Shown: piece after piece, positions 3,657 through 60,166 of the stretch | How positions within the stretch are numbered: the first letter of the stretch is position 1 | Layout: each line of letters begins with the position of its first letter | Origin: a bacterium | GTDB lineage: Bacteria > Patescibacteriota > Patescibacteriia > Patescibacteriales > JAKAJF01 | Reading direction: 5' to 3' | Assembly: GCA_021788015.1 (NCBI GenBank) | Contig: JAJYLD010000001.1 | Span: 209,581 to 273,580, forward strand | Length of the DNA: 64,000 nt | Program-made: the position numbers and the translations under genes | The notes under the pieces: model-generated | What the model saw: only the letters and a program-made list of their open reading frames with translations | Databases searched by the model: none | Told to the model about the DNA's origin: nothing

Positions 3657-4109
3657 ATGATTAAAGATATAATCATAAAAAAACTGGAAAAATTTGAGGA
3701 TGATCGAGGCTGGCTCGCGGAAATTTACCGTGACGACGAACTTAATTATCAGCCTGTCATGGGATATGTAAGCGTAACCAAACCGGGAATAATTCGCGGA
3801 CCGCACGAGCACGTTGAGCAATCCGATTGTTTTGTTTTTTTGGGACCGGGCAGTTTTGAATTGCACCTTTGGGATCGAAGAGAAGCCAGCGAAACCAACG
3901 GCGAGTATTTAAAGATGAAAGTCGGGGAAAATAATCCGACAATGGTTATCGTCCCGCCCGGAGTCGTGCACGGATACAAATGCATCGGCGAAAAAGACGC
4001 TTATAGCATAAATCTGCCTAATAAACTTTATAAAGGCAAAAACAAAGCCGATGATGTCGACGAAATCAGATGGGAAAAAGATTCGGAATCGCCGTATAAA
4101 ATCGCATAA
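3657..4109 (+). CDS. rfbC: dTDP-4-dehydrorhamnose 3,5-epimerase-like cupin (RmlC family, short form)
   Basis: FEDDRGWLAEIY near the N-terminus, a HEH motif, PPGVVHGY, and position inside the rml operon. Confidence 0.75.
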   Translation: MIKDIIIKKLEKFEDDRGWLAEIYRDDELNYQPVMGYVSVTKPGIIRGPHEHVEQSDCFVFLGPGSFELHLWDRREASETNGEYLKMKVGENNPTMVIVPPGVVHGYKCIGEKDAYSINLPNKLYKGKNKADDVDEIRWEKDSESPYKIA

Positions 4110-4141
4110 CTCATATCGCGTATCGCGTAACGCACAAAAAT

Positions 4142-5568: not shown

Positions 5569-6437
5569 AAATTCTAATTTTAGGAGCGCGCGGCAATTTA
5601 GGCGGGCAGCTTGTCAAAGTTTTTGAAAAAGACAGCGAGGTGATCGCTTGGGACCGAAGCGAAGTCGATATCACCGATAAAGATTTAATCACAAAAAAAA
5701 TTTTGGAAATAAAACCGGACGCAATAATCAATGCCGCCGCCTATAACGCCGTCGATAAATGTGAAGAAAGTGAGGAAGAATTTGAAAAAGCGAAAAAAAT
5801 AAACGGACAAGCCGCCGGATATTTGGCAGACGCGGCGATAAGCGTGGGCGCAATTTTAATACGCTACTCGAGCGATTATGTTTTCGACGGTGAAAATAAA
5901 AACGGCTACAAGGAAGACGACGTCCCCGATAATCCCGTCGATAAATACGGCGAATCACAGCTTGCTGGCGAAAAAGAAATAATTTCAAGAAGCGGCAAAG
6001 GTTTAAAATGGTATTTGATAAGAACATCAAAACTATTCGGGCCAAAAGGGGAAAGCGAGGCAGCGAAACCGAGTTTTTTCGATATAATACTCAAATTAAG
6101 CAAAGAAAAAAGTGAACTTAACGTGGTTAATGAGGAAGTAAGTTGTTTTGCCTATACACCGGATTTGGCAAAAGCGACAAAAGAAATTTTGGCAAGCGGG
6201 AAGGGATACGGAATTTATCATATCGTAAACGGTTCGCCTTGCACCTGGTACGAAGCGGCTTTGGAATTATTCAAACTTGCGAACACAAATGTAAAAGTGA
6301 ACGCCGTTTCAAGCGAACAATTTCCCAGGCTGGCGAAAAGACCGAAATTCTCCGTGCTTTTGAACACGAAATTGGAGCCGATGCGCAGCTACAAAGAAGC
6401 GTTAAAAGAATATTTAAATTTGAATCAGGAATTATGA
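5565..6437 (+). CDS. rfbD: dTDP-4-dehydrorhamnose reductase
   Basis: MKILILGARGNLG, a YGESQLAGE catalytic region, a 4-nt overlap with rfbB, and typical length. Confidence 0.85.
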   Translation: MKILILGARGNLGGQLVKVFEKDSEVIAWDRSEVDITDKDLITKKILEIKPDAIINAAAYNAVDKCEESEEEFEKAKKINGQAAGYLADAAISVGAILIRYSSDYVFDGENKNGYKEDDVPDNPVDKYGESQLAGEKEIISRSGKGLKWYLIRTSKLFGPKGESEAAKPSFFDIILKLSKEKSELNVVNEEVSCFAYTPDLAKATKEILASGKGYGIYHIVNGSPCTWYEAALELFKLANTNVKVNAVSSEQFPRLAKRPKFSVLLNTKLEPMRSYKEALKEYLNLNQEL

Positions 6438-6489
6438 ATTAAGAATCATGGTATTTTGCCATAATTCATAATTCATAATTCATAATTCC
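6428..6489. repeat. AT-rich word hairpin containing (CATAATT)x4
   Basis: GGAATTATGAATTA (6428-6441, spanning the rfbD stop) is the exact reverse complement of TAATTCATAATTCC (6476-6489). Four tandem CATAATT units occupy 6460-6487. Confidence 0.8.
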
Positions 6490-21151: not shown

Positions 21152-21296
21152 AATCTCAAAACGCAAATCTCAAAACCAAAATTTAAAACCGAAAAACTGG
21201 ACAGAAAATACAATAAAAAATTTTTATTTTTATTCAAAGCAAAAATTTTTGAGATTTGAGTTATGGTTTTAAGTTTTGACATCTGAATTTTGAGAT
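21152..21296. repeat. AT-rich palindromic element (TCTCAAA word family), gene-less version
   Basis: 21153-21186 is identical to the reverse complement of 35378-35411 (34 nt). 21246-21296 resembles the reverse complement of 34981-35033. The two arms are mutually complementary. Confidence 0.75.
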
Positions 21297-22184: not shown

Positions 22185-23423
22185 ATGAAACATATCTATT
22201 TCGACCATAGCGCCACCACGCCGGTGGATGGAAAAGTGCTCGCGGCCATGATGCCGTATTTTTCAAAGACTTACGGGAACCCCTCATCGATTCATAACTT
22301 TGGGCAAAACGCGGTCATGGCGGTGGATGAAGCGAGAGAAAGTGTCGCCAAATTTTTGAACTGCGTTCCGGAAGAAGTAATTTTCACTTCGGGATCTACC
22401 GAATCTGACAATTTGGCCATTCGCGGAGCGATCAAGGCTTTGTTAAAAAAAGGCGTAAAAAAACCGCACGTTATCACGACGACGATTGAGCATCCCGCCG
22501 TTTTGGAACCGTGCGCCGAATTGCAACGCGGAGGCGTCGAGGTTACATATTTAAAAGTGAAACCGAACGGTGTCATTGCTTCGAATGATTTAAAAAAAGC
22601 GATAAAAGACAGTACTGTCCTAATTTCCGTGATGTACGTGAACAGTGAGGTGGGTAGCATTCAACCGATCAAGGAAATCGGCAAAATGATCAAAAAAATA
22701 AACGAGAACCGTTTCAAAACCTGGCGCGAAGCCGATCTGAAAACTCGCGGCGATAAACCGATGCCGATTCTTTTTCATACCGACGCGACTCAAGCGCTAA
22801 ATTTTTTGGATTGTGATGTGCAAAAAAACAATATTGATTTACTAAGCATGTCCGGCCATAAAATCTATGGTCCAAAAGGAGTGGGAGCGTTATTTGTTAG
22901 GACCGGAACCCCGCTTCGCGCTTTGCAGCTTGGCGGCCATCACGAGAATAATTTCAGGAGCGGGACATTGAACGTCACGGGGATCGTCGGTCTCGGAGCC
23001 GCCGTCCGGGAATTGTCGCGGAAAAAAGTCGATGTCAATAATAAAAAAATCGCGAGACTGAGAGACACTTTGGTCAAGGGAATTATGAAAAATATTCCCG
23101 ATGTCGTTTTGAATACGGACAGAGACAACGCGACGCCTTCCCACGCCCATTTTTCCTTTCTCGGAGTTGAAGGGGAGTCGGCTTTGATTTCTCTGGATCT
23201 GGCTGGTATCGCGGTTTCGACCGGTTCGGCTTGCGCGTCCGGAAGTTTAAAACCATCTCATGTGCTTCTGGCCATGGGGATAAAGCAGGAAGTCGCCCAT
23301 AATTCGATAAGGTTTACTTTGGGGAAAAACAACACGATGGAAGAAATAAAAAAAGCGATAAAAGTTTTACCGCCGATTATACGAAAATTAAGAAAAATGA
23401 ATCCATTAAAAAAAGCGGAATAA
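22185..23423 (+). CDS. Cysteine desulfurase (NifS/IscS class I)
   Basis: MKHIYFDHSATTP, SGHKIYGPKGVGALF (PLP lysine) and the catalytic loop STGSACASG. Confidence 0.93.
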   Translation: MKHIYFDHSATTPVDGKVLAAMMPYFSKTYGNPSSIHNFGQNAVMAVDEARESVAKFLNCVPEEVIFTSGSTESDNLAIRGAIKALLKKGVKKPHVITTTIEHPAVLEPCAELQRGGVEVTYLKVKPNGVIASNDLKKAIKDSTVLISVMYVNSEVGSIQPIKEIGKMIKKINENRFKTWREADLKTRGDKPMPILFHTDATQALNFLDCDVQKNNIDLLSMSGHKIYGPKGVGALFVRTGTPLRALQLGGHHENNFRSGTLNVTGIVGLGAAVRELSRKKVDVNNKKIARLRDTLVKGIMKNIPDVVLNTDRDNATPSHAHFSFLGVEGESALISLDLAGIAVSTGSACASGSLKPSHVLLAMGIKQEVAHNSIRFTLGKNNTMEEIKKAIKVLPPIIRKLRKMNPLKKAE

Positions 23424-23437
23424 ATTCCGCTTTTTTT
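23410..23437. terminator. Bidirectional intrinsic terminator
   Basis: AAAAAGCGGAAT-AA-ATTCCGCTTTTT overlaps the desulfurase stop, between convergent genes. Confidence 0.75.
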
Positions 23438-23714
23438 AATGGAACGGATTGTTCAAACCGTCGATGTTACGAATGTATGTTTTTTGGTTTATTTTTTTTA
23501 TTATACCGTTGAATTTATTTATATCGAAAGTTTCGGTGGCGACTTCATTTTTTAACACCAAAACAATTTCAGATTGCGTAACCGATTCGTAAAAATTATT
23601 ATAAAGAAAGATGACGTCGAAATACAAAACGAAAATTATAAGCAAGACCAAAAGAAAATAAGTCGCCCCAGAAATTTTTCGGAATGAAATTTTTATTTTC
23701 CCCGCTATACGCAT
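23436..23714 (-). CDS. Small membrane-anchored protein at the distal end of the pilus operon
   Basis: 92 aa with one N-terminal TM (ATYFLLVLLIIFVLYFDVIFL). Its ATG directly follows a SCAIR right arm. Confidence 0.55.
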   Translation of the reverse strand: MRIAGKIKISFRKISGATYFLLVLLIIFVLYFDVIFLYNNFYESVTQSEIVLVLKNEVATETFDINKFNGIIKKINQKTYIRNIDGLNNPFH

Positions 23715-26044: not shown

Positions 26045-26213
26045 TATTTTGATTTTTAGGTGAACAGTTTTAACAAATAATCCTAAATCCTAATTTCTAA
26101 ATCACAAACAAATCCAAAATTATAAATTCCAGTGACAAAAAATTTTGAATTTTTAATTTTTTTATCATTTGAATTCGTTTAGAAATTAAATATCAGGATT
26201 CGAATTTTTTAAT

Positions 26214-28437: not shown

Positions 28438-28498
28438 AAATTTAACTCGAGGATCGCAATTAATTTTAAAACTCAAATGTCAAATCCCAAAACAGTTT

Positions 28499-29026: not shown

Positions 29027-30166
29027 CTAAACCGCCGAAGTCAATGAATACATCGGCATGATAATGGCTATCGCCATGCCGCCGATGCCGCAACCCAGAA
29101 GAAGAATCAAAACCGGTTCAATTATGGCCGGAAGATTGGTCATAATTTGATCCACTTCTTCTTCGTAAAAAGAAGCCAATTCTTCGAGAATTGTATCCAG
29201 CTCGCCGGTTTGTTCGCCGACCGCGATCATTTGCCTGACCGTGGGCGGGAAAAGTTTTGGATACGCGCTTATAACTTCGTTTATTTGTCCGCCTTTTTTA
29301 ATTTTCTCTGCCATTTCGTCCATGGCTTTGCGATAATGCAGATTTCCAAGGACGTTGGCCGTAATCTGGAAACTTTTAATTATGGCGATATCGGTTTTTA
29401 AAAGCGAGCTTATGGTTCTGGCGAATTTGGCCAAATTGATTTTTTTGATGATATCCGAAAAAATCGGCAATTTAAGGAGAATGGAATGGAAGACGAATTT
29501 ACCTTTGTATGTGTGAAGAATTTTGTAAATTGCAGCGCAGACTACGATCAAAATAACAAGAGCAAGAATACCGTGTTGAACCAGGGCGTCGCTTACGGCG
29601 ATTAGAATTCTTGTTGCCAAAGGCATCTCCGCGTTAAAACTTTTCAGCATGTCCGTAATCTTGGGAACGACATAAATCATCATAAAAATGCCGATACCGC
29701 CCATGGCCGTGACGACTACAATCGGATATGTAAGGGCTCCTTTAACCTTTGAAATAAGTTCGTGCTGCTTTTTCAGCTGAATGAAAATCTGATGCAAAAC
29801 CTCCTCCAACTTACCGGAAATTTCGCCCGCCTCAACCATGCTTATAAAAAGGTCACCGAAAACTTTTCTGTGCGGCCTCAAACTCTCGGTAAAACTCACG
29901 CCGCGTTCGACATTTTTTGAAACATCGACAAGAATAAGTCTAAAGAACTTATTTTCCGTCTGCTCGGACAGAGTTTTTAAAGATATGGCCAGAGAAATGC
30001 CGGCCCTAAGCATGATGCCAAGATGCTGAACAAAAAATAACTTTTCCTTGATGGGAACCCCGGACAGTTTTATAAGAAGAAAATTGACTTTTTCGATAAA
30101 ATTTTTCTTTTCCTTGTCTTTTTCTTCTTCTTGGTTTGTTTTTTCCAAAACGAGATTGACCGGCAT
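29027..30166 (-). CDS. pilC: Type IV pilus platform protein PilC (T2SS F family)
   Basis: Duplicated T2SSF domains, three TM segments, and motifs such as GEISGKLEEVL and GEQTGELDTIL. Confidence 0.9.
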   Translation of the reverse strand: MPVNLVLEKTNQEEEKDKEKKNFIEKVNFLLIKLSGVPIKEKLFFVQHLGIMLRAGISLAISLKTLSEQTENKFFRLILVDVSKNVERGVSFTESLRPHRKVFGDLFISMVEAGEISGKLEEVLHQIFIQLKKQHELISKVKGALTYPIVVVTAMGGIGIFMMIYVVPKITDMLKSFNAEMPLATRILIAVSDALVQHGILALVILIVVCAAIYKILHTYKGKFVFHSILLKLPIFSDIIKKINLAKFARTISSLLKTDIAIIKSFQITANVLGNLHYRKAMDEMAEKIKKGGQINEVISAYPKLFPPTVRQMIAVGEQTGELDTILEELASFYEEEVDQIMTNLPAIIEPVLILLLGCGIGGMAIAIIMPMYSLTSAV

Positions 30167-30261
30167 ATGAGAAATTAAAAATTAAAAATGAAAAAATAAA
30201 AATAATTTGCGATCTTCAATTTTAGACATTGCGATTGCAATCGTAATTGAAAATTTTTAAT

Positions 30262-33320: not shown

Positions 33321-33505
33321 GGGGATAAGTTTGTCGTATTTTTCTATTTAATTATAACACAAAAAAGCCATTTGCGAAAAGACGGGCTTTCTTCTTTCAA
33401 TATCAATGGCGATGTGATAAAATGGGATTAAGAAAATAAAAATTTTCAACTCGCAATTTTCAAACAATTTGCAATTTTTCAATTTTTAAATTTAGAATTC
33501 ATTTT

Positions 33506-33919: not shown

Positions 33920-34975
33920 ATGCACAACGAATTGATTCGGATTCTATTTTTGACAACATTGTCTTTCGCGTTCGCGATGGGCTGGACGCCGCTTCTCGCG
34001 CATTTTCTTTATAAATATAAAATGGGGAAAAGGATCAGGAGCAATGGCGGAACTCCGATTTTCACGCAAATGCATGCTCATAAACAAGGGACGCCGGTCA
34101 TGGGCGGTCTCTTGGTCTGGGTTACCGTATTAATTTTCAGCTTGGTCTTTTTTTATTTGCCGAAAATATTTCATTCCGATTTCCTCAACTCTTTGAATTT
34201 TCTTTCCAGAAAAGAAACGCTTTTACCGTTGGGCGTTCTCGTAGCCACCGCCTTGGTCGGCCTTTTGGACGACTGGCTTGACATTACCGGCAATGGCGTT
34301 GCGGGCGGCGGAGGATTAAAAGTAAGGCATCGCCTTCTTATTTATACTCTTATCGCGATAGTGGGCGCTTGGTGGTTTTATTTTAAATTGGATTGGGATT
34401 TTTTTCATATCCCTTTTATCGGCAATTTTAAAATCGGTTGGTACTACATACTCATTTTTATTTTTGTGCTTGTCGCTACGGCCTTCTCGGTCAATGAAAC
34501 CGACGGCTTGGACGGTCTTTCCGGAGGCGTTTTACTTTCCTCATTCAGCGCCTATGCCGTAATCGCCTACGCTTTGGGCAAATATGATCTGGCCACTTTT
34601 TGCGGAATTATTGTCGGCGCCCTTCTCGCTTTTTTATGGTTCAATATCAATCCGGCGAGATTCTTTATGGGCGATACCGGATCCATGAGCCTTGGCATAA
34701 CTTTAGGCATAATTGCCATGCTCACGAACAGCGCTTTGATTTTGCCCATCATCGGCTTCGTTTTTGTTATTGAGTCACTGTCGGTTATCATTCAAATCAT
34801 TTCCAAAAAATTGCGCCACGGGAAAAAAGTTTTTCTTTCAAGCCCTTTGCACCATCATTTCGAAGCTAAAGGTTGGCCGGAGCCGAAAATCGTGATGCGA
34901 TTCTGGGTTATTGCCGGGGTAACTTCGGTTTTAGGTTTGATCATTTTTCTTTTGGACCAAACTACGAAAAGATAA
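33920..34975 (+). CDS. mraY: Phospho-N-acetylmuramoyl-pentapeptide transferase
   Basis: GLLDDWLDI, NETDGLDGL, FMGDTGSMSLG and PLHHHFE motifs. Confidence 0.95.
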   Translation: MHNELIRILFLTTLSFAFAMGWTPLLAHFLYKYKMGKRIRSNGGTPIFTQMHAHKQGTPVMGGLLVWVTVLIFSLVFFYLPKIFHSDFLNSLNFLSRKETLLPLGVLVATALVGLLDDWLDITGNGVAGGGGLKVRHRLLIYTLIAIVGAWWFYFKLDWDFFHIPFIGNFKIGWYYILIFIFVLVATAFSVNETDGLDGLSGGVLLSSFSAYAVIAYALGKYDLATFCGIIVGALLAFLWFNINPARFFMGDTGSMSLGITLGIIAMLTNSALILPIIGFVFVIESLSVIIQIISKKLRHGKKVFLSSPLHHHFEAKGWPEPKIVMRFWVIAGVTSVLGLIIFLLDQTTKR

Positions 34976-34980
34976 ATAAA

Positions 34981-35418
34981 ATCTCAAAACTCAAATGTCA
35001 AATCTCGAAACTGCAACTCAAAACCAAAAAACAGATGTAAAGATGAGAGCCTATCATTTTTCGATCCGTGTTATAAAGTTCATGGATTCTCTGCCGAATA
35101 AAAGAATTTTTGGATAATCGCAGGCCAACTATTAAGATCGGTAACCTCGATCGGAGCAAATATTATCGAAGCGAAATCGTCGTCATCGAAAAAAGATTTT
35201 ATTAAGTTTTATGAAATCGCTTTAAAATCGTCAAATGAAAGTAAGTATTGTTCGGATTATTGAGAGACGCCACGAATACAGACAAGGTAAAGTCAATGAA
35301 TTATTGCAAGAAACGAAAGAAATATCAAAAATACTCGGTGCCAGTCTGCTCACGCTTAAAAATAAAAGATTTTAGCTTTAAATTTTGGTTTTGAGATTTG
35401 CGTTTTGAGATTTGAGAT
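34981..35418 (+). mobile_element. Palindrome-flanked cassette carrying a degraded four-helix-bundle protein gene
   Basis: Arm 34981-35033 and arm 35378-35418 are mutually complementary TCTCAAA-word sequences. Both are shared, in inverted orientation, with the gene-less locus at 21152-21296. Confidence 0.5.
35043..35375 (+). pseudogene. Four-helix-bundle protein (23S rRNA intervening-sequence protein family), frameshifted
   Basis: Three frames together read MRAYHFSIRVIKFMDSLPNKRIF / IIAGQLLRSVTSIGANIIEAKSSSSKKDFIKFYEIALKSSNESKY / VNELLQETKEISKILGASLLTLKNKRF. This matches the family pattern (QL.RS..SIGANI.E....S.KDF) but needs at least two frameshifts. Confidence 0.7.
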
Positions 35419-35425
35419 TAATATC

Positions 35426-36571
35426 ATGTTCAAAAAAATAAAAAATTGGTTCACCAAACTCCTGCACCGCCAATCTTTCCAGCACAACCCTGATTATACT
35501 TTAATCGGGGTTATTTCGATAATTTTAGTTTACGGCTTGATTATGCTTTCGAGCGCGACAAGCGCGGTCGCTTACGCCAATCACGGAGACAGTTATTATT
35601 TTTTTAAGCATCAATTATTCGGAATCGCCATAGGCTTGGTCCTTTTTTATTTTCTCTCGCGAATCGATTATCATATTTGGAAAAAATACGCGGCCGGTTT
35701 TTTGTTTTTTTCCATTGCTTTATTGCTTCTTGTCTTTATTCCTCATCTCGGAGCGCATTATGGCAAGGCGCCGAGGTGGATTAATGTTTTAGGTTTTTCT
35801 CTTCAACCGTCGGAATTTGTAAAAATTTCTTTTCTTTTGTATTTAGCCGCTTGGCTTGAATCGAGAAAGTCAAAACTGCACGAATTCAATGCGGGCATAA
35901 AGCCGTTTTTAACGGCGCTCGGAGCGATTGCGATTTTAATGCTTATGCAGCCGGATTTGGGAACTTTGTCCATTATCGTAATCACCGCCCTTTCCGTATA
36001 CTTCGTCGGAGGCGGCAAAACCAAACATATAATTTACATCATTCTCGCCGGCGTAATCGCCATGATGATTTTGGTAAGAATAAAACCCTACCAGGCGGAC
36101 CGTTTTCGCTGTTACGCCGATCCGAACTACAGTCCCGACGATATCTGTTATCAACTTAATCAGTCGCTTATCGCCGTCGGATCGGGCGGAATTTGGGGCA
36201 GGGGACTGGGCGCGAGTCGGGAAAAATTCATGTATTTGCCGGAAGTGAGCGGCGATTCGATTTTTCCGATTATCGGCGAAGAAACCGGCTTTATTTTTAG
36301 CGTCGGCCTGATTTTGCTTTTTTTGCTTTTATTTTATCGGGGATATAAAATTTCTAAAAATGCGCCCGATCATTTCGGAAGAAATCTCGCTATCGGCATC
36401 GTAACCTGGATTGTCGCCCAGGCCTTGATTAATATCGGAAGCATGATCGATGCCATGCCCATGACCGGCGTGCCGTTGCCGTTTATAAGTTATGGCGGCA
36501 CAGCCATGATGTCGGCCTTAAGCGCGATCGGAGTGCTTGTTAATATAAGCAAACACACGAAAATTAATTAG
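35426..36571 (+). CDS. ftsW: Peptidoglycan glycosyltransferase FtsW/RodA (SEDS family)
   Basis: Ten TM segments, SEFVKI, MLMQPDLGT, GLGAS, PEVSGDSIF and PFISYGGT motifs. The ATG at 35426 is preferred to the alternative start at 35405 inside the repeat arm. Confidence 0.9.
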   Translation: MFKKIKNWFTKLLHRQSFQHNPDYTLIGVISIILVYGLIMLSSATSAVAYANHGDSYYFFKHQLFGIAIGLVLFYFLSRIDYHIWKKYAAGFLFFSIALLLLVFIPHLGAHYGKAPRWINVLGFSLQPSEFVKISFLLYLAAWLESRKSKLHEFNAGIKPFLTALGAIAILMLMQPDLGTLSIIVITALSVYFVGGGKTKHIIYIILAGVIAMMILVRIKPYQADRFRCYADPNYSPDDICYQLNQSLIAVGSGGIWGRGLGASREKFMYLPEVSGDSIFPIIGEETGFIFSVGLILLFLLLFYRGYKISKNAPDHFGRNLAIGIVTWIVAQALINIGSMIDAMPMTGVPLPFISYGGTAMMSALSAIGVLVNISKHTKIN

Positions 36572-36576
36572 ATTGA

Positions 36577-37689
36577 ATGTTTAAGATCAATCCTCAAAAT
36601 TATAGTGCGTTTATAAGAATTAAAGGCCGGGGCAAGGCAAAATGCCTGATGAATGAATTTTTGTTGAATGGTCCGCTTAAAAATGCCAATCCATTAATCA
36701 TAAATAATCAGGATTCTTGGGTTTTTTATATCGACAAGAGAAAGCAGAAAATTTGCGACAAGATTGGTTTCAATTTTTTTAAGAACGAGAAGAGATTTAA
36801 AAAGTACAGTTCTGATTTTGAAAAGTACGTAAATTTCGCACAGAAGAAATTGATTAAAAAGTATTCTTCAATACTTTCACGAATAAGTAAAGAAGAATTT
36901 AAAATTGCGGTTAAAAAATTGTCTGAATTTTGGAAATTTTACGGCTATACCGAATTTATTTTTCATGATTCTCCTTATGAAAGAATGCTTAAGACAAAAA
37001 ATAAAATTTTAAAGAAAAATTTAAAGAAATTGGACGCGCTTAAATTGGAAGGAAGAAAAATTTTTAATTTTTTTGTGCCGTACGGTGGAGTATTAAACAA
37101 TATTCTTTCTTCTATTTCAAAGCAATTTTTTCAAAATGAGGGGGACGGATATTTTCTCTATTATGACGAAATTATAAAATTGTTTAATGGTTTTAAAATT
37201 GATAAAAAAATAATAGCGCAAAGAAAAAGATTTTATGCTTTATCGGGAGGTAAAAAAATCAAGCATTTTAATTATACTGATTCGAAAAAAGTAGCGCGTA
37301 TTTTTTACAAATACGAAAAGAAGGAATTAAAAAATCAAACAAAAATGGGAATAAAAGGAGATATCGCAAATCCGGGAAAGGCGGTTGGTAAAATCGTAAT
37401 CGTTCCCATGATGGACGCAAAAGAAGCGGCGCATATTAAAATGAACAAAGGTGATATTTTAGTTGCACAAAGTACGAATCCTGATTTAATCAGTTTATGC
37501 ACTAAAGCCGGCGCTATCGTCGCCAACCAGGGCGGCATGCTTTCTCATGCCGCCATAATCAGTAGAGAATTAAATATACCTTGCATAGTCGGCACTACCA
37601 GTGCCACCAAAATTTTCAAAGATGGTGACCTGGTGGAGGTTGATGCCTTTCAGGGTATAATAAGAAAAATAAATGGAAATTATAAATAA
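36577..37689 (+). CDS. PEP-utilizing enzyme mobile (phosphohistidine swivel) domain protein
   Basis: C-terminal GKAVGKIVIV ... GDILVAQSTNPD ... GAIVANQGGMLSHAAIISRELNIPCIVG is the swivel domain with the catalytic His. The roughly 270-aa Lys-rich N-terminal region is unassigned. Confidence 0.7.
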   Translation: MFKINPQNYSAFIRIKGRGKAKCLMNEFLLNGPLKNANPLIINNQDSWVFYIDKRKQKICDKIGFNFFKNEKRFKKYSSDFEKYVNFAQKKLIKKYSSILSRISKEEFKIAVKKLSEFWKFYGYTEFIFHDSPYERMLKTKNKILKKNLKKLDALKLEGRKIFNFFVPYGGVLNNILSSISKQFFQNEGDGYFLYYDEIIKLFNGFKIDKKIIAQRKRFYALSGGKKIKHFNYTDSKKVARIFYKYEKKELKNQTKMGIKGDIANPGKAVGKIVIVPMMDAKEAAHIKMNKGDILVAQSTNPDLISLCTKAGAIVANQGGMLSHAAIISRELNIPCIVGTTSATKIFKDGDLVEVDAFQGIIRKINGNYK

Positions 37690-38746
37690 AAAAATACTTC
37701 TATCCGGCGGGGGCACGGGCGGTTCCGTATCGCCACTTTTGGCTATTTGTGAAAGTTTGAAAAAAGAATACGAATTTTTTTGGGTAGGCACAAAAAACGG
37801 CATCGAAAAGAAAATGGTCGGGGCCGAAAAGATACCTTATTATTCCGTTTCGAGCGGAAAATTCAGACGTTATTTTTCCATCCGTAATTTTATCGATCCG
37901 TTTTTTGTTTTAATCGGTTTTTTTCAATCCTTGGGGTTATTGCTTAATTTGAGACCGGACATGGTAATTACGGCCGGAAGTTTTGTCAGCGTGCCGGTCG
38001 TTTGGGCGGCCCGGCTTTTGCGCATTCCGGTTTTAGTACATCAGCAAGATATCAGGCCGGGACTTGCCAATAAACTGATGGCGCCGTTCGCAAAAGTCAT
38101 AACCGTTACTTTTGAAAAATCGTTAAAAGATTACGGCAAAAAAGCGGTTTTGACCGGAAGCCCGGCGAGGCAAAGTCTCCAAAATCCAAATTCAAAATTC
38201 CAAATTCCAAATGAATTTAGCGAAGGACTGCCTGTAATTTTTATTTTAGGCGGGGGCACGGGCGCGAAAGCTATAAATGATTTAGTTTATGAATCCATGT
38301 CGGAAATCACAAAATTTTGTAACGTAATTCATCAGACAGGAAAAAATAAAATCGCAAATCGCAAATCGCCGATTATCAATTGCGTTTCTTTCGATTTTCT
38401 CAATCCTCCCCAAATGGCTGCCGCATACGCCGAAGCCGACCTTGTCGTTTCCCGCGCCGGCATGGGAACTTTGACCGAACTTTCTTATTTCGGCAAACCG
38501 GCCATAATAATTCCCATGCCCGATTCGCATCAAGAAGAAAACGCCGAGATTTTAAAAAATGCGAACGCGGCGATTGTTTTGAATCAGAGAAAGTTGAGCT
38601 CGGATAAATTTATTTCGGAAATTAAAAAATTGCTCACAAATGATAATTTAAAATCGGAATTAAGCGCAAACATAAAAAAAATCATCCGCACGGACGCGGA
38701 TGAAATTATAAAAACAATAAAAGCTATAATACCAGCACAGTTATAA
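37673..38746 (+). CDS. murG: Undecaprenyldiphospho-muramoylpentapeptide beta-N-acetylglucosaminyltransferase
   Basis: ILLSGGGTGGSVSP, FILGGGTGAKAIN and VSRAGMGTLTELSYFGKPAIIIP motifs. It contains two in-frame AT-word repeat tracts. Confidence 0.9.
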   Translation: MEIINKKILLSGGGTGGSVSPLLAICESLKKEYEFFWVGTKNGIEKKMVGAEKIPYYSVSSGKFRRYFSIRNFIDPFFVLIGFFQSLGLLLNLRPDMVITAGSFVSVPVVWAARLLRIPVLVHQQDIRPGLANKLMAPFAKVITVTFEKSLKDYGKKAVLTGSPARQSLQNPNSKFQIPNEFSEGLPVIFILGGGTGAKAINDLVYESMSEITKFCNVIHQTGKNKIANRKSPIINCVSFDFLNPPQMAAAYAEADLVVSRAGMGTLTELSYFGKPAIIIPMPDSHQEENAEILKNANAAIVLNQRKLSSDKFISEIKKLLTNDNLKSELSANIKKIIRTDADEIIKTIKAIIPAQL

Positions 38747-44598: not shown

Positions 44599-44739
44599 AT
44601 TCCATTAGAAGCTCAGCCGGAAACGGACGAGCGCGATTGCTTCGTTGGAAAGACAATAGAAATAAAAAATAAAGGATTAAAGATTAACTCGAGCGGATAA
44701 GCAGTTCAAACTTTTTGATCGCGATTCGCTTCCAATGGG
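44595..44739 (+). repeat. SCAIR element, short form, with compensated arm variants
   Basis: The left arm is ATGAAT-TCCATTAGAAGC (44595-44612) and the right arm GCTTCCAATGGG (44728-44739) ends before ATG 44740. The internal TTTTTGATCGCGAT matches the start of the long-form core. Confidence 0.7.
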
Positions 44740-49265: not shown

Positions 49266-49348
49266 AATCTCAAATCTCAAAAAGCAAAAATTAAAACTGT
49301 AACTTAAAACTAAAAAGTTTTGAGATTTGCCATTTGAGTTTTGAGATT
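49266..49348. repeat. AT-rich palindromic element (TCTCAAA word family), third locus
   Basis: AATCTCAAATCTCAAAAAGC ... GCCATTTGAGTTTTGAGATT form complementary arms, using the same words as 21152-21296 and 34981-35418. Confidence 0.65.
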
Positions 49349-51129: not shown

Positions 51130-51317
51130 TGACAAAAATAAAATTTTAAATTCTAATTTCTCAATCCTAAATTTATAGATCCAAATTACCAAAACGTTTT
51201 GAATTTTTATTTTTTGTCATCCGATATCGTTTGGAGTTTAGATATTATAAATTTTAGAATTTCAATTTGAGTTTTAGATTTTAATATTGCTTCGAATTTA
51301 GAATTTAAAATCATTTT

Positions 51318-53108: not shown

Positions 53109-53213
53109 AAAATGTCTAAATTATAATTTCCAATTTCTAAATTTAGGAATTGGGAATTTTATTAGACCTTATAATTTAGAAATTAGAAATTTTTGTCATT
53201 ACTCTCGCCTATT

Positions 53214-59972: not shown

Positions 59973-60005
59973 AAAATAAAAAAATACAAGATTCTTTTGG
60001 AACTT

Positions 60006-60125
60006 GGTTTAATTTCTAATTTTTAATTTTAATGTTTGTAACCAGAAGCCGATCTTTTCTAATTTAAAATTAAAATCATTAAAAATTGTTTAAAAATTAA
60101 AAATTATAAAATTAGAAATTAAACC
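60006..60125. repeat. AT-rich long hairpin (TTCTAAT word family) between ftsX and mnmA
   Basis: GGTTTAATTTCTAATTTT (60006-60023) is the exact reverse complement of AAAATTAGAAATTAAACC (60108-60125). The interior is also self-complementary AT words. Confidence 0.8.
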
Positions 60126-60166
60126 GACTTGTGTTTAATCCCATTCGGTGCTAGACTTTTTCCGAT

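Follow-up and report, generated by a model that had tools for sequence, protein, structure and literature searches.

A decaying four-helix-bundle gene between inverted heptamer arrays at the mraY-ftsW junction of a Patescibacteria genome

In the stretch of patescibacterial DNA analysed here (64 kb of contig JAJYLD010000001.1, in the following referred to as the window), the genes mraY and ftsW are separated by a spacer of 450 nt which consists of a left repeat arm, a disrupted open reading frame (ORF) and a right repeat arm. Together, these parts form an insert of 441 bp (34979-35419) occupying the mraY-ftsW junction. The ORF belongs to the four-helix-bundle (4HB) family, also known as the protein family of 23S ribosomal RNA (rRNA) intervening sequences (IVSs), and is treated here together with its arms as one cassette. 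A first-pass annotation, made from the letters alone, had already placed an insert of roughly 440 bp with mutually complementary arms and a gene of this family between the two host genes; all of this holds, and both host genes are confirmed by Pfam. The G+C content of the window is about 40%, and the nearest relatives of its MraY are found in Parcubacteria/Falkowbacteria-type genomes of the Candidate Phyla Radiation (CPR). The locus comprises the following features:

33920..34975, plus strand: mraY, the upstream host gene (PF00953, E=3e-31), with its stop codon 3 nt 5' of the left arm
34979..35033, plus strand: left arm, A/C-rich, about seven heptamer words (AATCTCA AAACTCA AATGTCA AATCTCG ...), containing the start codon at 34995
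34995..35375, plus strand: 4HB pseudogene (PF05635/TIGR02436), recognised by three-frame translation and profile matches
35370..35419, plus strand: right arm, T/G-rich, complementary to the left arm, beginning at the stop codon and ending 6 nt before the ftsW ATG
35426..36571, plus strand: ftsW, the downstream host gene (PF01098, E=5e-97), with its likely start at ATG 35426

The two arms represent inverted arrays of heptamers. A repeat finder pairs 34980-35029 with 35370-35419 over 50 nt at 76% complementarity, the best core of 24 nt reaching 92%, and folding of the arms alone yields a stem of -38.6 kcal/mol compared to -13.4 +/- 3.2 kcal/mol with the right arm shuffled. In the fold of the whole insert, the arms constitute the closing stem. 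Heptamer-periodic segments are located at both arms (34972-35017 on the left, 35382-35422 on the right), and each arm aligns with its counterparts in intact cassettes, in case of the left arm with those of loci L002, L004 and L001. Throughout the window, 13 heptamer-periodic segments are present versus none in composition-matched shuffles, while the pattern CAAANNN in four successive copies occurs 17 times (0.6 expected), nearly always at cassette or remnant loci. On the downstream side, the FtsW N-terminus (MFKKIKNW...) aligns with the FtsW starts of relatives, and the TTG at 35405, given as ftsW start by the ORF tool, falls within the right arm.

Three-frame translation reveals pieces of one protein spread over all three frames, with a joined length of 111-127 aa. 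By alignment to the intact genes of L001, L002 and L004, three deletions of 1 nt each were located at about 35096-35110, at 35248-35250 and at 35283, and an intact reading frame of about 115-130 aa is missing from the window copy. Hence, the frame is disrupted as previously described, but the gene, formerly placed at 35043-35375 with at least two frameshifts, starts at ATG 34995 and carries three. The repaired ORF scores 82.3 bits against PF05635 (cut-off 33.8) and 95.8 bits against TIGR02436 (cut-off 24), which agrees with the original family assignment. Moreover, the family profile matches five chains of PDB entry 2rld (E=4.8e-23), a solved four-helix-bundle structure to which the predicted product appears to be related. 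At E<1e-10, matches to over 1,500 proteins were obtained, with intact Patescibacteria proteins of 125-127 aa and 75-77% identity ranking highest. These intact homologues start with MSNLKTETQNEKTDLK... (MSNLKTETQN...), while the window encodes MSNLETATQNQKTDVK (MSNLETATQN...) from ATG 34995 onward; this ATG is read as the gene start because the N-termini of the intact homologues align there. The gene start thus lies inside the left arm, and the first approximately 13 codons are arm sequence. Since the A/C-rich arm allows an ORF to be prolonged upstream, the automated position of start codons relative to the arm is noisy, and alignment to close homologues was used instead. An assembly error as source of the frameshifts is unlikely since two other public assemblies (L092 and L093), possibly from one sample, carry the identical pseudogene sequence. 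Other assignments of the gene were rejected: NF033474, the profile of the accessory gene avd of diversity-generating retroelements (DGRs), gives 21.9 bits with a cut-off of 80, and no reverse-transcriptase-like ORF is present beside the cassette; PADLOC returned no match to a defence system; and the 4HB protein, the sole ORF of full-length copies, does not match any transposase family.

Three relatives with about 80% identical MraY share the gene order T2SSE - small ORF - mraY - ftsW - murG. In these syntenic genomes, the mraY-ftsW spacers range from 0-75 to about 110 bp and contain no 4HB gene. Judged by this comparison, the cassette at the mraY-ftsW junction is a discrete, lineage-specific insertion. 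Residence in rRNA is ruled out, as an Rfam search of the window yielded two tRNAs only and neither the window nor 90 loci showed any similarity to an E. coli rrn operon by blastn. At the three window copies of the element (see below), no target-site duplication was visible by eye and the outer bases contain no direct repeat, the bases outside the arms being ATAA/AATA, TAAG/CAAT and TATT/TTTT. Terminator-like sites, defined by a short G+C-rich stem followed by a T run, number 3 in 2.7 kb with 3.6 expected, and none is located within the A/U-rich arms; an intrinsic terminator or a hairpin resembling repetitive extragenic palindromic (REP) elements was therefore rejected as an identity of the arms.

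Besides the insert, gene-less forms of the same element were detected, three in the window and one in another organism, the latter being the single additional hairpin obtained by scanning JGI metagenomes with a 26-mer of the right arm:

21152..21296, minus strand: miniature lacking the gene, located between Rrf2 and IscU, with both arms retained around about 50 nt, antisense to both neighbours
49266..49348, minus strand: second miniature lacking the gene, shorter and positioned downstream of a sigma-70-like gene, with ATGGCAAATCTCAAAAC (MANLKT) on the minus strand
28467..28491, plus strand: single left arm remaining (AAAACTCAAATGTCAAATCCCAAA), located in a spacer with a minus-strand ORF on either side
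L111, 3945-4060, minus strand: gene-less miniature in another organism, with two small G+C-rich hairpins (GTCCCTACGGGAC, GATATCGCGAAGCGATATC) in the loop instead of a gene

The minus strand of the 21-kb miniature contains an exact match of 36 nt to 35377-35412, which extends the identity of 21153-21186 with the reverse complement of 35378-35411 reported by the first-pass annotation; its fold z amounts to -3.2 on the plus and -4.5 on the minus strand. For the 49-kb miniature, fold z values of -6.8 and -5.4 and an exact match of 21 nt to 35403-35423 were obtained, so that the third related pair suspected at this position is real. Read on the minus strand, both miniatures align with both cassette ends including the position of the ATG (TTCAGATGTCAAAA, CTCAAATGGCAAAT), and thereby retain the polarity marks of the full cassette, i.e., an ATG-bearing arm and a stop-side arm. 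Inversion had been described for the 21-kb copy; this is correct, but the 49-kb copy is likewise inverted with respect to the cassette and its flanking genes. The solo arm, overlooked when the other two copies were listed, shares 19 nt exactly with 34986-35004. These alignments identify the gene-less hairpins as remnants of 4HB cassettes. All four orientable gene-less remnants are antisense to adjacent genes, compared to none of 71 intact copies being antisense to both neighbours. The miniature of L111 adjoins an ORF of 295 aa.

How the cassette behaves as a unit was derived from 80 further CPR loci of 4HB homologues in species-representative genomes. Here, the ORF is intact in 75 of the 80 loci, confirming that intact gene-carrying copies exist elsewhere, and arms are present at about 75 of 79. 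Besides these 80 loci, intact cassettes with arms reside at ybaB|recR and gltX|M23 peptidase, and twice in a type IV secretion system (T4SS) region. The flanking Pfam families in 60 loci comprise 90 upstream and 83 downstream, rpoB|rpoC being encountered three times. The median arm measures 47 nt; for the right arm, the median starting point in 70 loci is 1 nt before the stop codon ends. Arm composition is mirror-imaged, with 52% A and 20% C on the left and 52% T and 19% G on the right. Across 76 loci, arm autocorrelation reaches 0.66 at lag 7 and 0.60 at lag 14 compared to about 0.16 at lags 3-4, while the ORF interior of the same loci lacks heptamer periodicity (autocorrelation about 0.25). 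Relative to the cassette, the flanking genes are oriented ++ in 58, -+ in 9, +- in 4 and -- in none of 71 loci. The non-coding right arms are more similar between loci whose proteins are more identical (Spearman 0.24; none of 1000 permutations as high), and the arms are therefore regarded as inherited with the gene. On this comparative evidence, arms and gene travel together as one unit which is gained at new junctions, and the cassette can be described as a 4HB (S23p) gene of about 120 aa within two inverted arrays of approximately 5-7 heptamers. The gene has its start codon in or beside the left arm and its stop codon at the first repeat of the right arm. Two side observations concern the arms as repeats. 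In the T4SS region of L001, orphan left arms at 2148-2240, 2715-2815 and 3868-3950 keep the first approximately 14 codons (ATGTCAAAAATTAAAACC...ACTGAT). After these arms come a shared ATTTAGATAATTCAAAAT.CAAACCTTAA segment and, further on, another 4HB gene with its own arms, an arrangement that resembles insertion of a cassette into the loop of a second one, or else an exchange of cargo between arms. In L093, a Logan contig, the 3' end falls inside the right arm of the cassette, such repeats thus breaking short-read assemblies.

Distant homologues with 36-48% identity were found on plasmids by tblastn. The first four loci examined all display inverted heptamer arrays, and all four genes are located between co-directional genes. 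Altogether, such arrays accompany 10 of 12 plasmid or phage loci from cyanobacteria, Chloroflexota and Treponema, the words being lineage-specific. That the arms are inverted heptamer arrays accompanying this gene family across phyla had been missed in the first-pass annotation. Representative arms are:

Nostoc: (CAATTCG)n, 37 nt, 97% complementary
Dolichospermum: (TAATTCG)n, 33 nt, 100% complementary
Treponema: (GAAAGTG)n
Chlorohelix: (ATGAATT)n

Further words among the 12 loci are TTTTAGA, AATCCCC/AATCGTA, CCAGTGA/TGGTCAC and AAATTCA, and in most of these loci the right arm again begins at the stop codon. When arms were paired across lineages, own arms gave a mean score of 46 versus 20 for those of other loci, the own partner being the best in 10 of 12 cases. 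As far as can be read from these alignments, the heptamer word changes between lineages while arm complementarity persists. With regard to carriage by phages, no relative was present on IMG/VR contigs, and of two weak GenBank phage matches the one inspected had no arms. Several plasmid copies (L100, L102, L104, L106 and L110) are found at recurring junctions in distant phyla: DUF1156 | 4HB | Swt1-HEPN on Gloeocapsa and Chlorohelix plasmids, helicase-related | 4HB | DNA methylase on Dolichospermum and Chlorohelix plasmids, and drmD | 4HB | MmeI-like on a Planktothrix plasmid. The cassette either travels with such defence-type operons or favours them.

A number of further repeats and hairpins were noted in the window. 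Additional heptamer-periodic segments lie at 4098-4139, 30160-30202, 33465-33499, 44651-44687 and 51134-51173, and that at 33465-33499 overlaps the sole promoter-like site 5' of the small-ORF-mraY operon. Two A/C-rich heptamer arrays, 38172-38217 and 38334-38383, are located in frame inside the murG ORF (37673-38746), the former encoding a ...SPKSKFKIPNSK... linker directly before the glycine-rich motif; both could be arm sequence absorbed into the coding region. Four more intergenic hairpins (6416-6489, 26079-26200, 53111-53184 and 60001-60130; fold z -3.2 to -5.6) contain the 7-nt words GAATTAT/AATTCAT, AATCCTA, AATTTCC and TTTCTAA, words that are also found in the arms of further 4HB cassettes (Chlorohelix L102, L057 and L075). 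These word matches are of low complexity, and the hairpins may represent miniatures from other lineages of the cassette. Between the convergent ORFs 22185-23423 (plus strand) and 23436-23714 (minus strand), a perfect 20-nt palindrome at 23402-23443 (TCCATTAAAAAAAGCGGAAT / ATTCCGCTTTTTTTAATGGA) is probably a bidirectional terminator. Finally, an ORF of 370 aa with a mobile domain of phosphoenolpyruvate (PEP)-utilising enzymes (36577-37689) is positioned between ftsW and murG. Since murG directly follows ftsW in the three syntenic relatives, this ORF represents a second lineage-specific insertion in the cell-division cluster.

The insert is best explained as a decaying copy of a widespread IVS-type stem-loop cassette that lodges in operon spacers and for which excision by RNase III is plausible, a reading to which a probability of roughly 0.6 is assigned. 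Such a cassette would lack a promoter of its own and would be transcribed by read-through of the host operon, as suggested by arms which abut the neighbouring stop and start codons and by the lack of a convincing promoter, albeit in an uninformative scan. In the host transcript, the arms would pair into an imperfect stem of about 45 bp which, by analogy with rRNA IVSs, RNase III would probably cut. Cleavage would free the cassette RNA and leave mraY and ftsW as separate cistrons. If a copy were turned antisense, e.g., through recombination of its inverted arms with each other, its expression would cease; the ORF of such silent copies would subsequently disappear, with the hairpin remaining. 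This path of silencing followed by ORF loss fits the finding that all four miniatures lie antisense, as opposed to none of the 71 intact copies. Regarding the earlier proposal of an autonomous and a miniature form of a mobile cassette, a discrete cassette at many junctions is indeed observed, but mobility was overstated: there is no sign that the 4HB protein mobilises the element, no target-site duplication and no transposase. Similarly, the suggested likeness to IVS hairpins in operon spacers is borne out by an anatomy matching that of the Coxiella 23S IVS, but not by the test for selection on the sense RNA.

Several observations weigh against the operon-spacer IVS interpretation. In the paired arms, 94 G.U stand against 138 A.C mismatches, i.e., no excess of G.U as a signature of sense-RNA selection, and stem energies of the sense and the antisense strand (-32.3 and -32.9, respectively; p=0.44) show no asymmetry. 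A function at the RNA level is compatible with these data, though it receives no support from sequence asymmetry. Within the CPR subfamily, pairing of own arms scores barely above pairing with the arms of other loci (43 versus 36), because all of these arms share low-complexity CAAA words, and structure-preserving covariation is clear only between lineages, not within this subfamily. The promoter scan performed at chance level, a cassette promoter being neither found nor excluded by it. Long co-directional gene runs in CPR genomes inflate the '++' class of flanks, yet they cannot account for 58 versus 0, and the orientation argument from the miniatures comprises four cases only. Cleavage of the cassette stems by RNase III is argued from anatomy, which makes it plausible, and a long stem within essential operons such as mraY-ftsW or rpoB-rpoC could be harmful if cut or if it caused termination.

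A role of the palindrome at the DNA level, in recombination, conversion or arm inversion, is a serious rival because the two strands form equally good stems, with no preference for G.U pairs; it may also coexist with RNA processing. In its strict form, the arrays would be terminal inverted repeats or hairpin/cruciform sites used by a recombinase encoded elsewhere, or by homologous recombination between copies, with the 4HB gene as cargo and the RNA stem as by-product. The arms of young copies are 97-100% complementary, suggesting copying or conversion between arms, and identity is mosaic, two window copies sharing 36 nt of the right arm exactly but having different left arms. The inverted miniatures, the nested or orphan arms in L001 and the contig break inside an arm of L093 would likewise be expected of such an element. 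However, a target-site duplication is lacking at the three window copies, the cassette encodes neither a transposase nor a recombinase domain and none recurs among the commonest flanking families, and no copy was seen on the viral contigs of IMG/VR. Furthermore, the strict sense orientation of intact copies (58:0) is unexpected for a DNA transposon unless expression is selected. A purely DNA-level element is hence considered rather improbable, if clearly the strongest competitor.

A host-serving RNA element is less likely still. According to this explanation, the hairpins are operon punctuation, acting as mRNA stabiliser, attenuator/terminator or insulator in the manner of REP sequences or bacterial interspersed mosaic elements (BIMEs), and the 4HB protein is an RNA-binding accessory of some copies. 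The precise position of the hairpins between cistrons, abutting stop and start codons, would suit such a role, as would the abundance of heptamer-periodic segments in the window relative to shuffles and the 70-75 gene-less inverted pairs per Xanthomonas genome, which mostly occupy co-directional spacers such as groES|groEL (PMC4692102). Nevertheless, the mraY-ftsW junction of close relatives does without the hairpin, which is thus dispensable there; the stems are A/U-rich with no terminator-like signal beyond the chance number of sites; the ORF decays both here and in Coxiella; and coupled gene and arm phylogenies at sporadic sites resemble an invasive element rather than a conserved regulator. 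Coincidence, finally, would imply that heptamer simple sequence repeats (SSRs) arose by polymerase slippage in A/T-rich spacers and that their position around a 4HB gene is meaningless. Heptamer SSRs are in fact over-represented in many bacterial genomes, for which slippage has been proposed (PMC4692102), but complementary inverted arrays with differing words flank one and the same gene family in CPR, Cyanobacteriota, Chloroflexota and Spirochaetota, two Gammaproteobacteria are reported to have heptamers at the start codon of members of this family, and arm pairing lies far above that of shuffles. Chance association is accordingly regarded as highly improbable.

Going beyond the operon-spacer IVS reading, 4HB genes and inverted heptamer arrays might tentatively be viewed as one ancient element family lodging at hairpin tips in any heavily transcribed RNA, be it rRNA or operon mRNA. 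The pentameric 4HB protein would then recognise its own arrays with about one repeat per subunit, and the intergenic heptamers of Xanthomonas, of Nostoc and other cyanobacteria and of CPR bacteria would largely be gene-less footprints. This wider proposal is possible, but offered with considerable doubt.

First described some thirty years ago, the S23p/IVS protein family has annotated members in thousands of genomes. Heptamer repeats, for their part, have long been another oddity of intergenic DNA in bacteria, and the present locus together with the comparisons links both: the 4HB gene is accompanied by inverted heptamer arrays in rRNA as well as between ordinary genes, and bare hairpins are left after gene loss. 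As a consequence, where a 4HB gene is found in a cas, DISARM or restriction operon, it may be a passenger and not a part of the system. On the practical side, the arms break assemblies, and gene callers extend ORFs into them. The general coupling of 4HB genes to heptamer arrays appears to be undescribed so far; a literature search retrieved no earlier description of 4HB genes with flanking heptamer arrays outside rRNA, which is not proof that none exists.

Among known systems, intergenic heptamer SSRs resemble the arms. By definition, these are tandem 7-nt units, often in convergent pairs (PMC4692102), and the cassette arms fall under this definition. Rehm et al. reported 186 GGGAATC heptamer arrays in X. 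campestris, with 70 cases of convergent inverted pairs, mostly having co-directional flanks (PMC4692102). Like the arms, the repeats of Xanthomonas (GGGAATC), Nostoc (GGGGA(C/T)T) and the STRR (short tandemly repeated repetitive) type of cyanobacteria usually contain at least four tandem units and are intergenic, mostly between co-directional genes and near the upstream gene, and their frequent convergent inverted pairs are able to form stem-loops. One inverted pair (#16/#17) is situated in the groES-groEL spacer (PMC4692102 supplement). Another array (#15), between bccP (XCC0517) and XCC0516, overlaps the XCC0516 start codon with 17 nt (PMC4692102 supplement), and Xcc0516 is the named X. campestris homologue of the S23p/4HB family (PMC3936711); this arrangement resembles the left arm of the cassette, which overlaps the 4HB start. 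In contrast to GGGAATC arrays, the cassette words are A/C-rich (CTCAAAA) and cannot form G-quadruplexes. The study by Rehm et al. treats the GGGAATC arrays as G-quadruplex-forming SSRs and makes no mention of S23p, IVS or four-helix-bundle genes (PMC4692102).

MITEs (miniature inverted-repeat transposable elements) share terminal inverted repeats, short gene-less besides longer gene-bearing forms, an intergenic position and several copies per genome. Unlike MITEs, the cassette shows no target-site duplication, its only ORF has no known transposase fold and runs into the arms at both ends, and intact copies are strictly sense-oriented. A MITE or other non-autonomous transposon with terminal inverted repeats was rejected, given that neither a target-site duplication nor a transposase-encoding partner was found. 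Integron attC sites were rejected on anatomy, as the repeats are positioned on both sides of the ORF instead of forming a single 3' palindrome. The Avd protein of DGRs possesses a homologous four-helix-bundle fold (PMC10053308), in line with the weak NF033474 match, but no reverse transcriptase is present beside the window cassette or among recurrent flanking families, and DGRs have no heptamer arms. RNase III sites between cistrons, as in the early mRNA of phage T7 or in the stems of rRNA precursors (Dunn and Studier 1973, as cited in PMC4990558), would be comparable in featuring a long intercistronic stem in a polycistronic transcript. These sites, however, have loops devoid of a gene and do not occur as repeated mobile units, and cleavage of the cassette is hypothetical.

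The closest relatives are the ORF-bearing IVSs in 23S and 16S rRNA genes of Leptospira, Coxiella, Xanthomonas and Brucella, which are of similar length (about 430-440 nt) and whose terminal inverted repeats form a long stem around an S23p/4HB ORF. The Coxiella 23S IVS comprises 428 nt with a terminal stem of 28 bp that is cut mid-stem by RNase III, and harbours a decaying S23p ORF with three or four tandem GACAGAT heptamers just 5' of the start codon (PMC4990558). It hence has the same ORF in its loop and heptamer repeats at its 5' end by the start codon; its origin and function were called unclear (PMC4990558). A solved structure of the X. campestris S23p protein has been reported as well (PMC4990558). 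In rRNA IVSs, too, the ORF is often decaying, and distribution is sporadic with horizontal spread (PMC4990558). The same protein family also occurs inside rRNA insertions of CPR bacteria, with 22 PF05635 ORFs within 16S and 23S insertions (PMC11270868 Table S4), while 23S_rRNA_IVP genes have been found inside cas operons, e.g., between cmr3 and cmr2 (PMC3936711). At the same time, the cassette differs in being located between protein-coding genes instead of an rRNA helix, with no rRNA near 90 loci, and in having arms which are longer (median 47 nt) and less perfect. Excision by RNase III, demonstrated for rRNA IVSs, is argued for the cassette from its anatomy. The cassette is therefore best filed as a variant of the IVS kind and not as a strict member, since it lacks the defining location in rRNA while keeping the stem, the heptamers and the 4HB gene.

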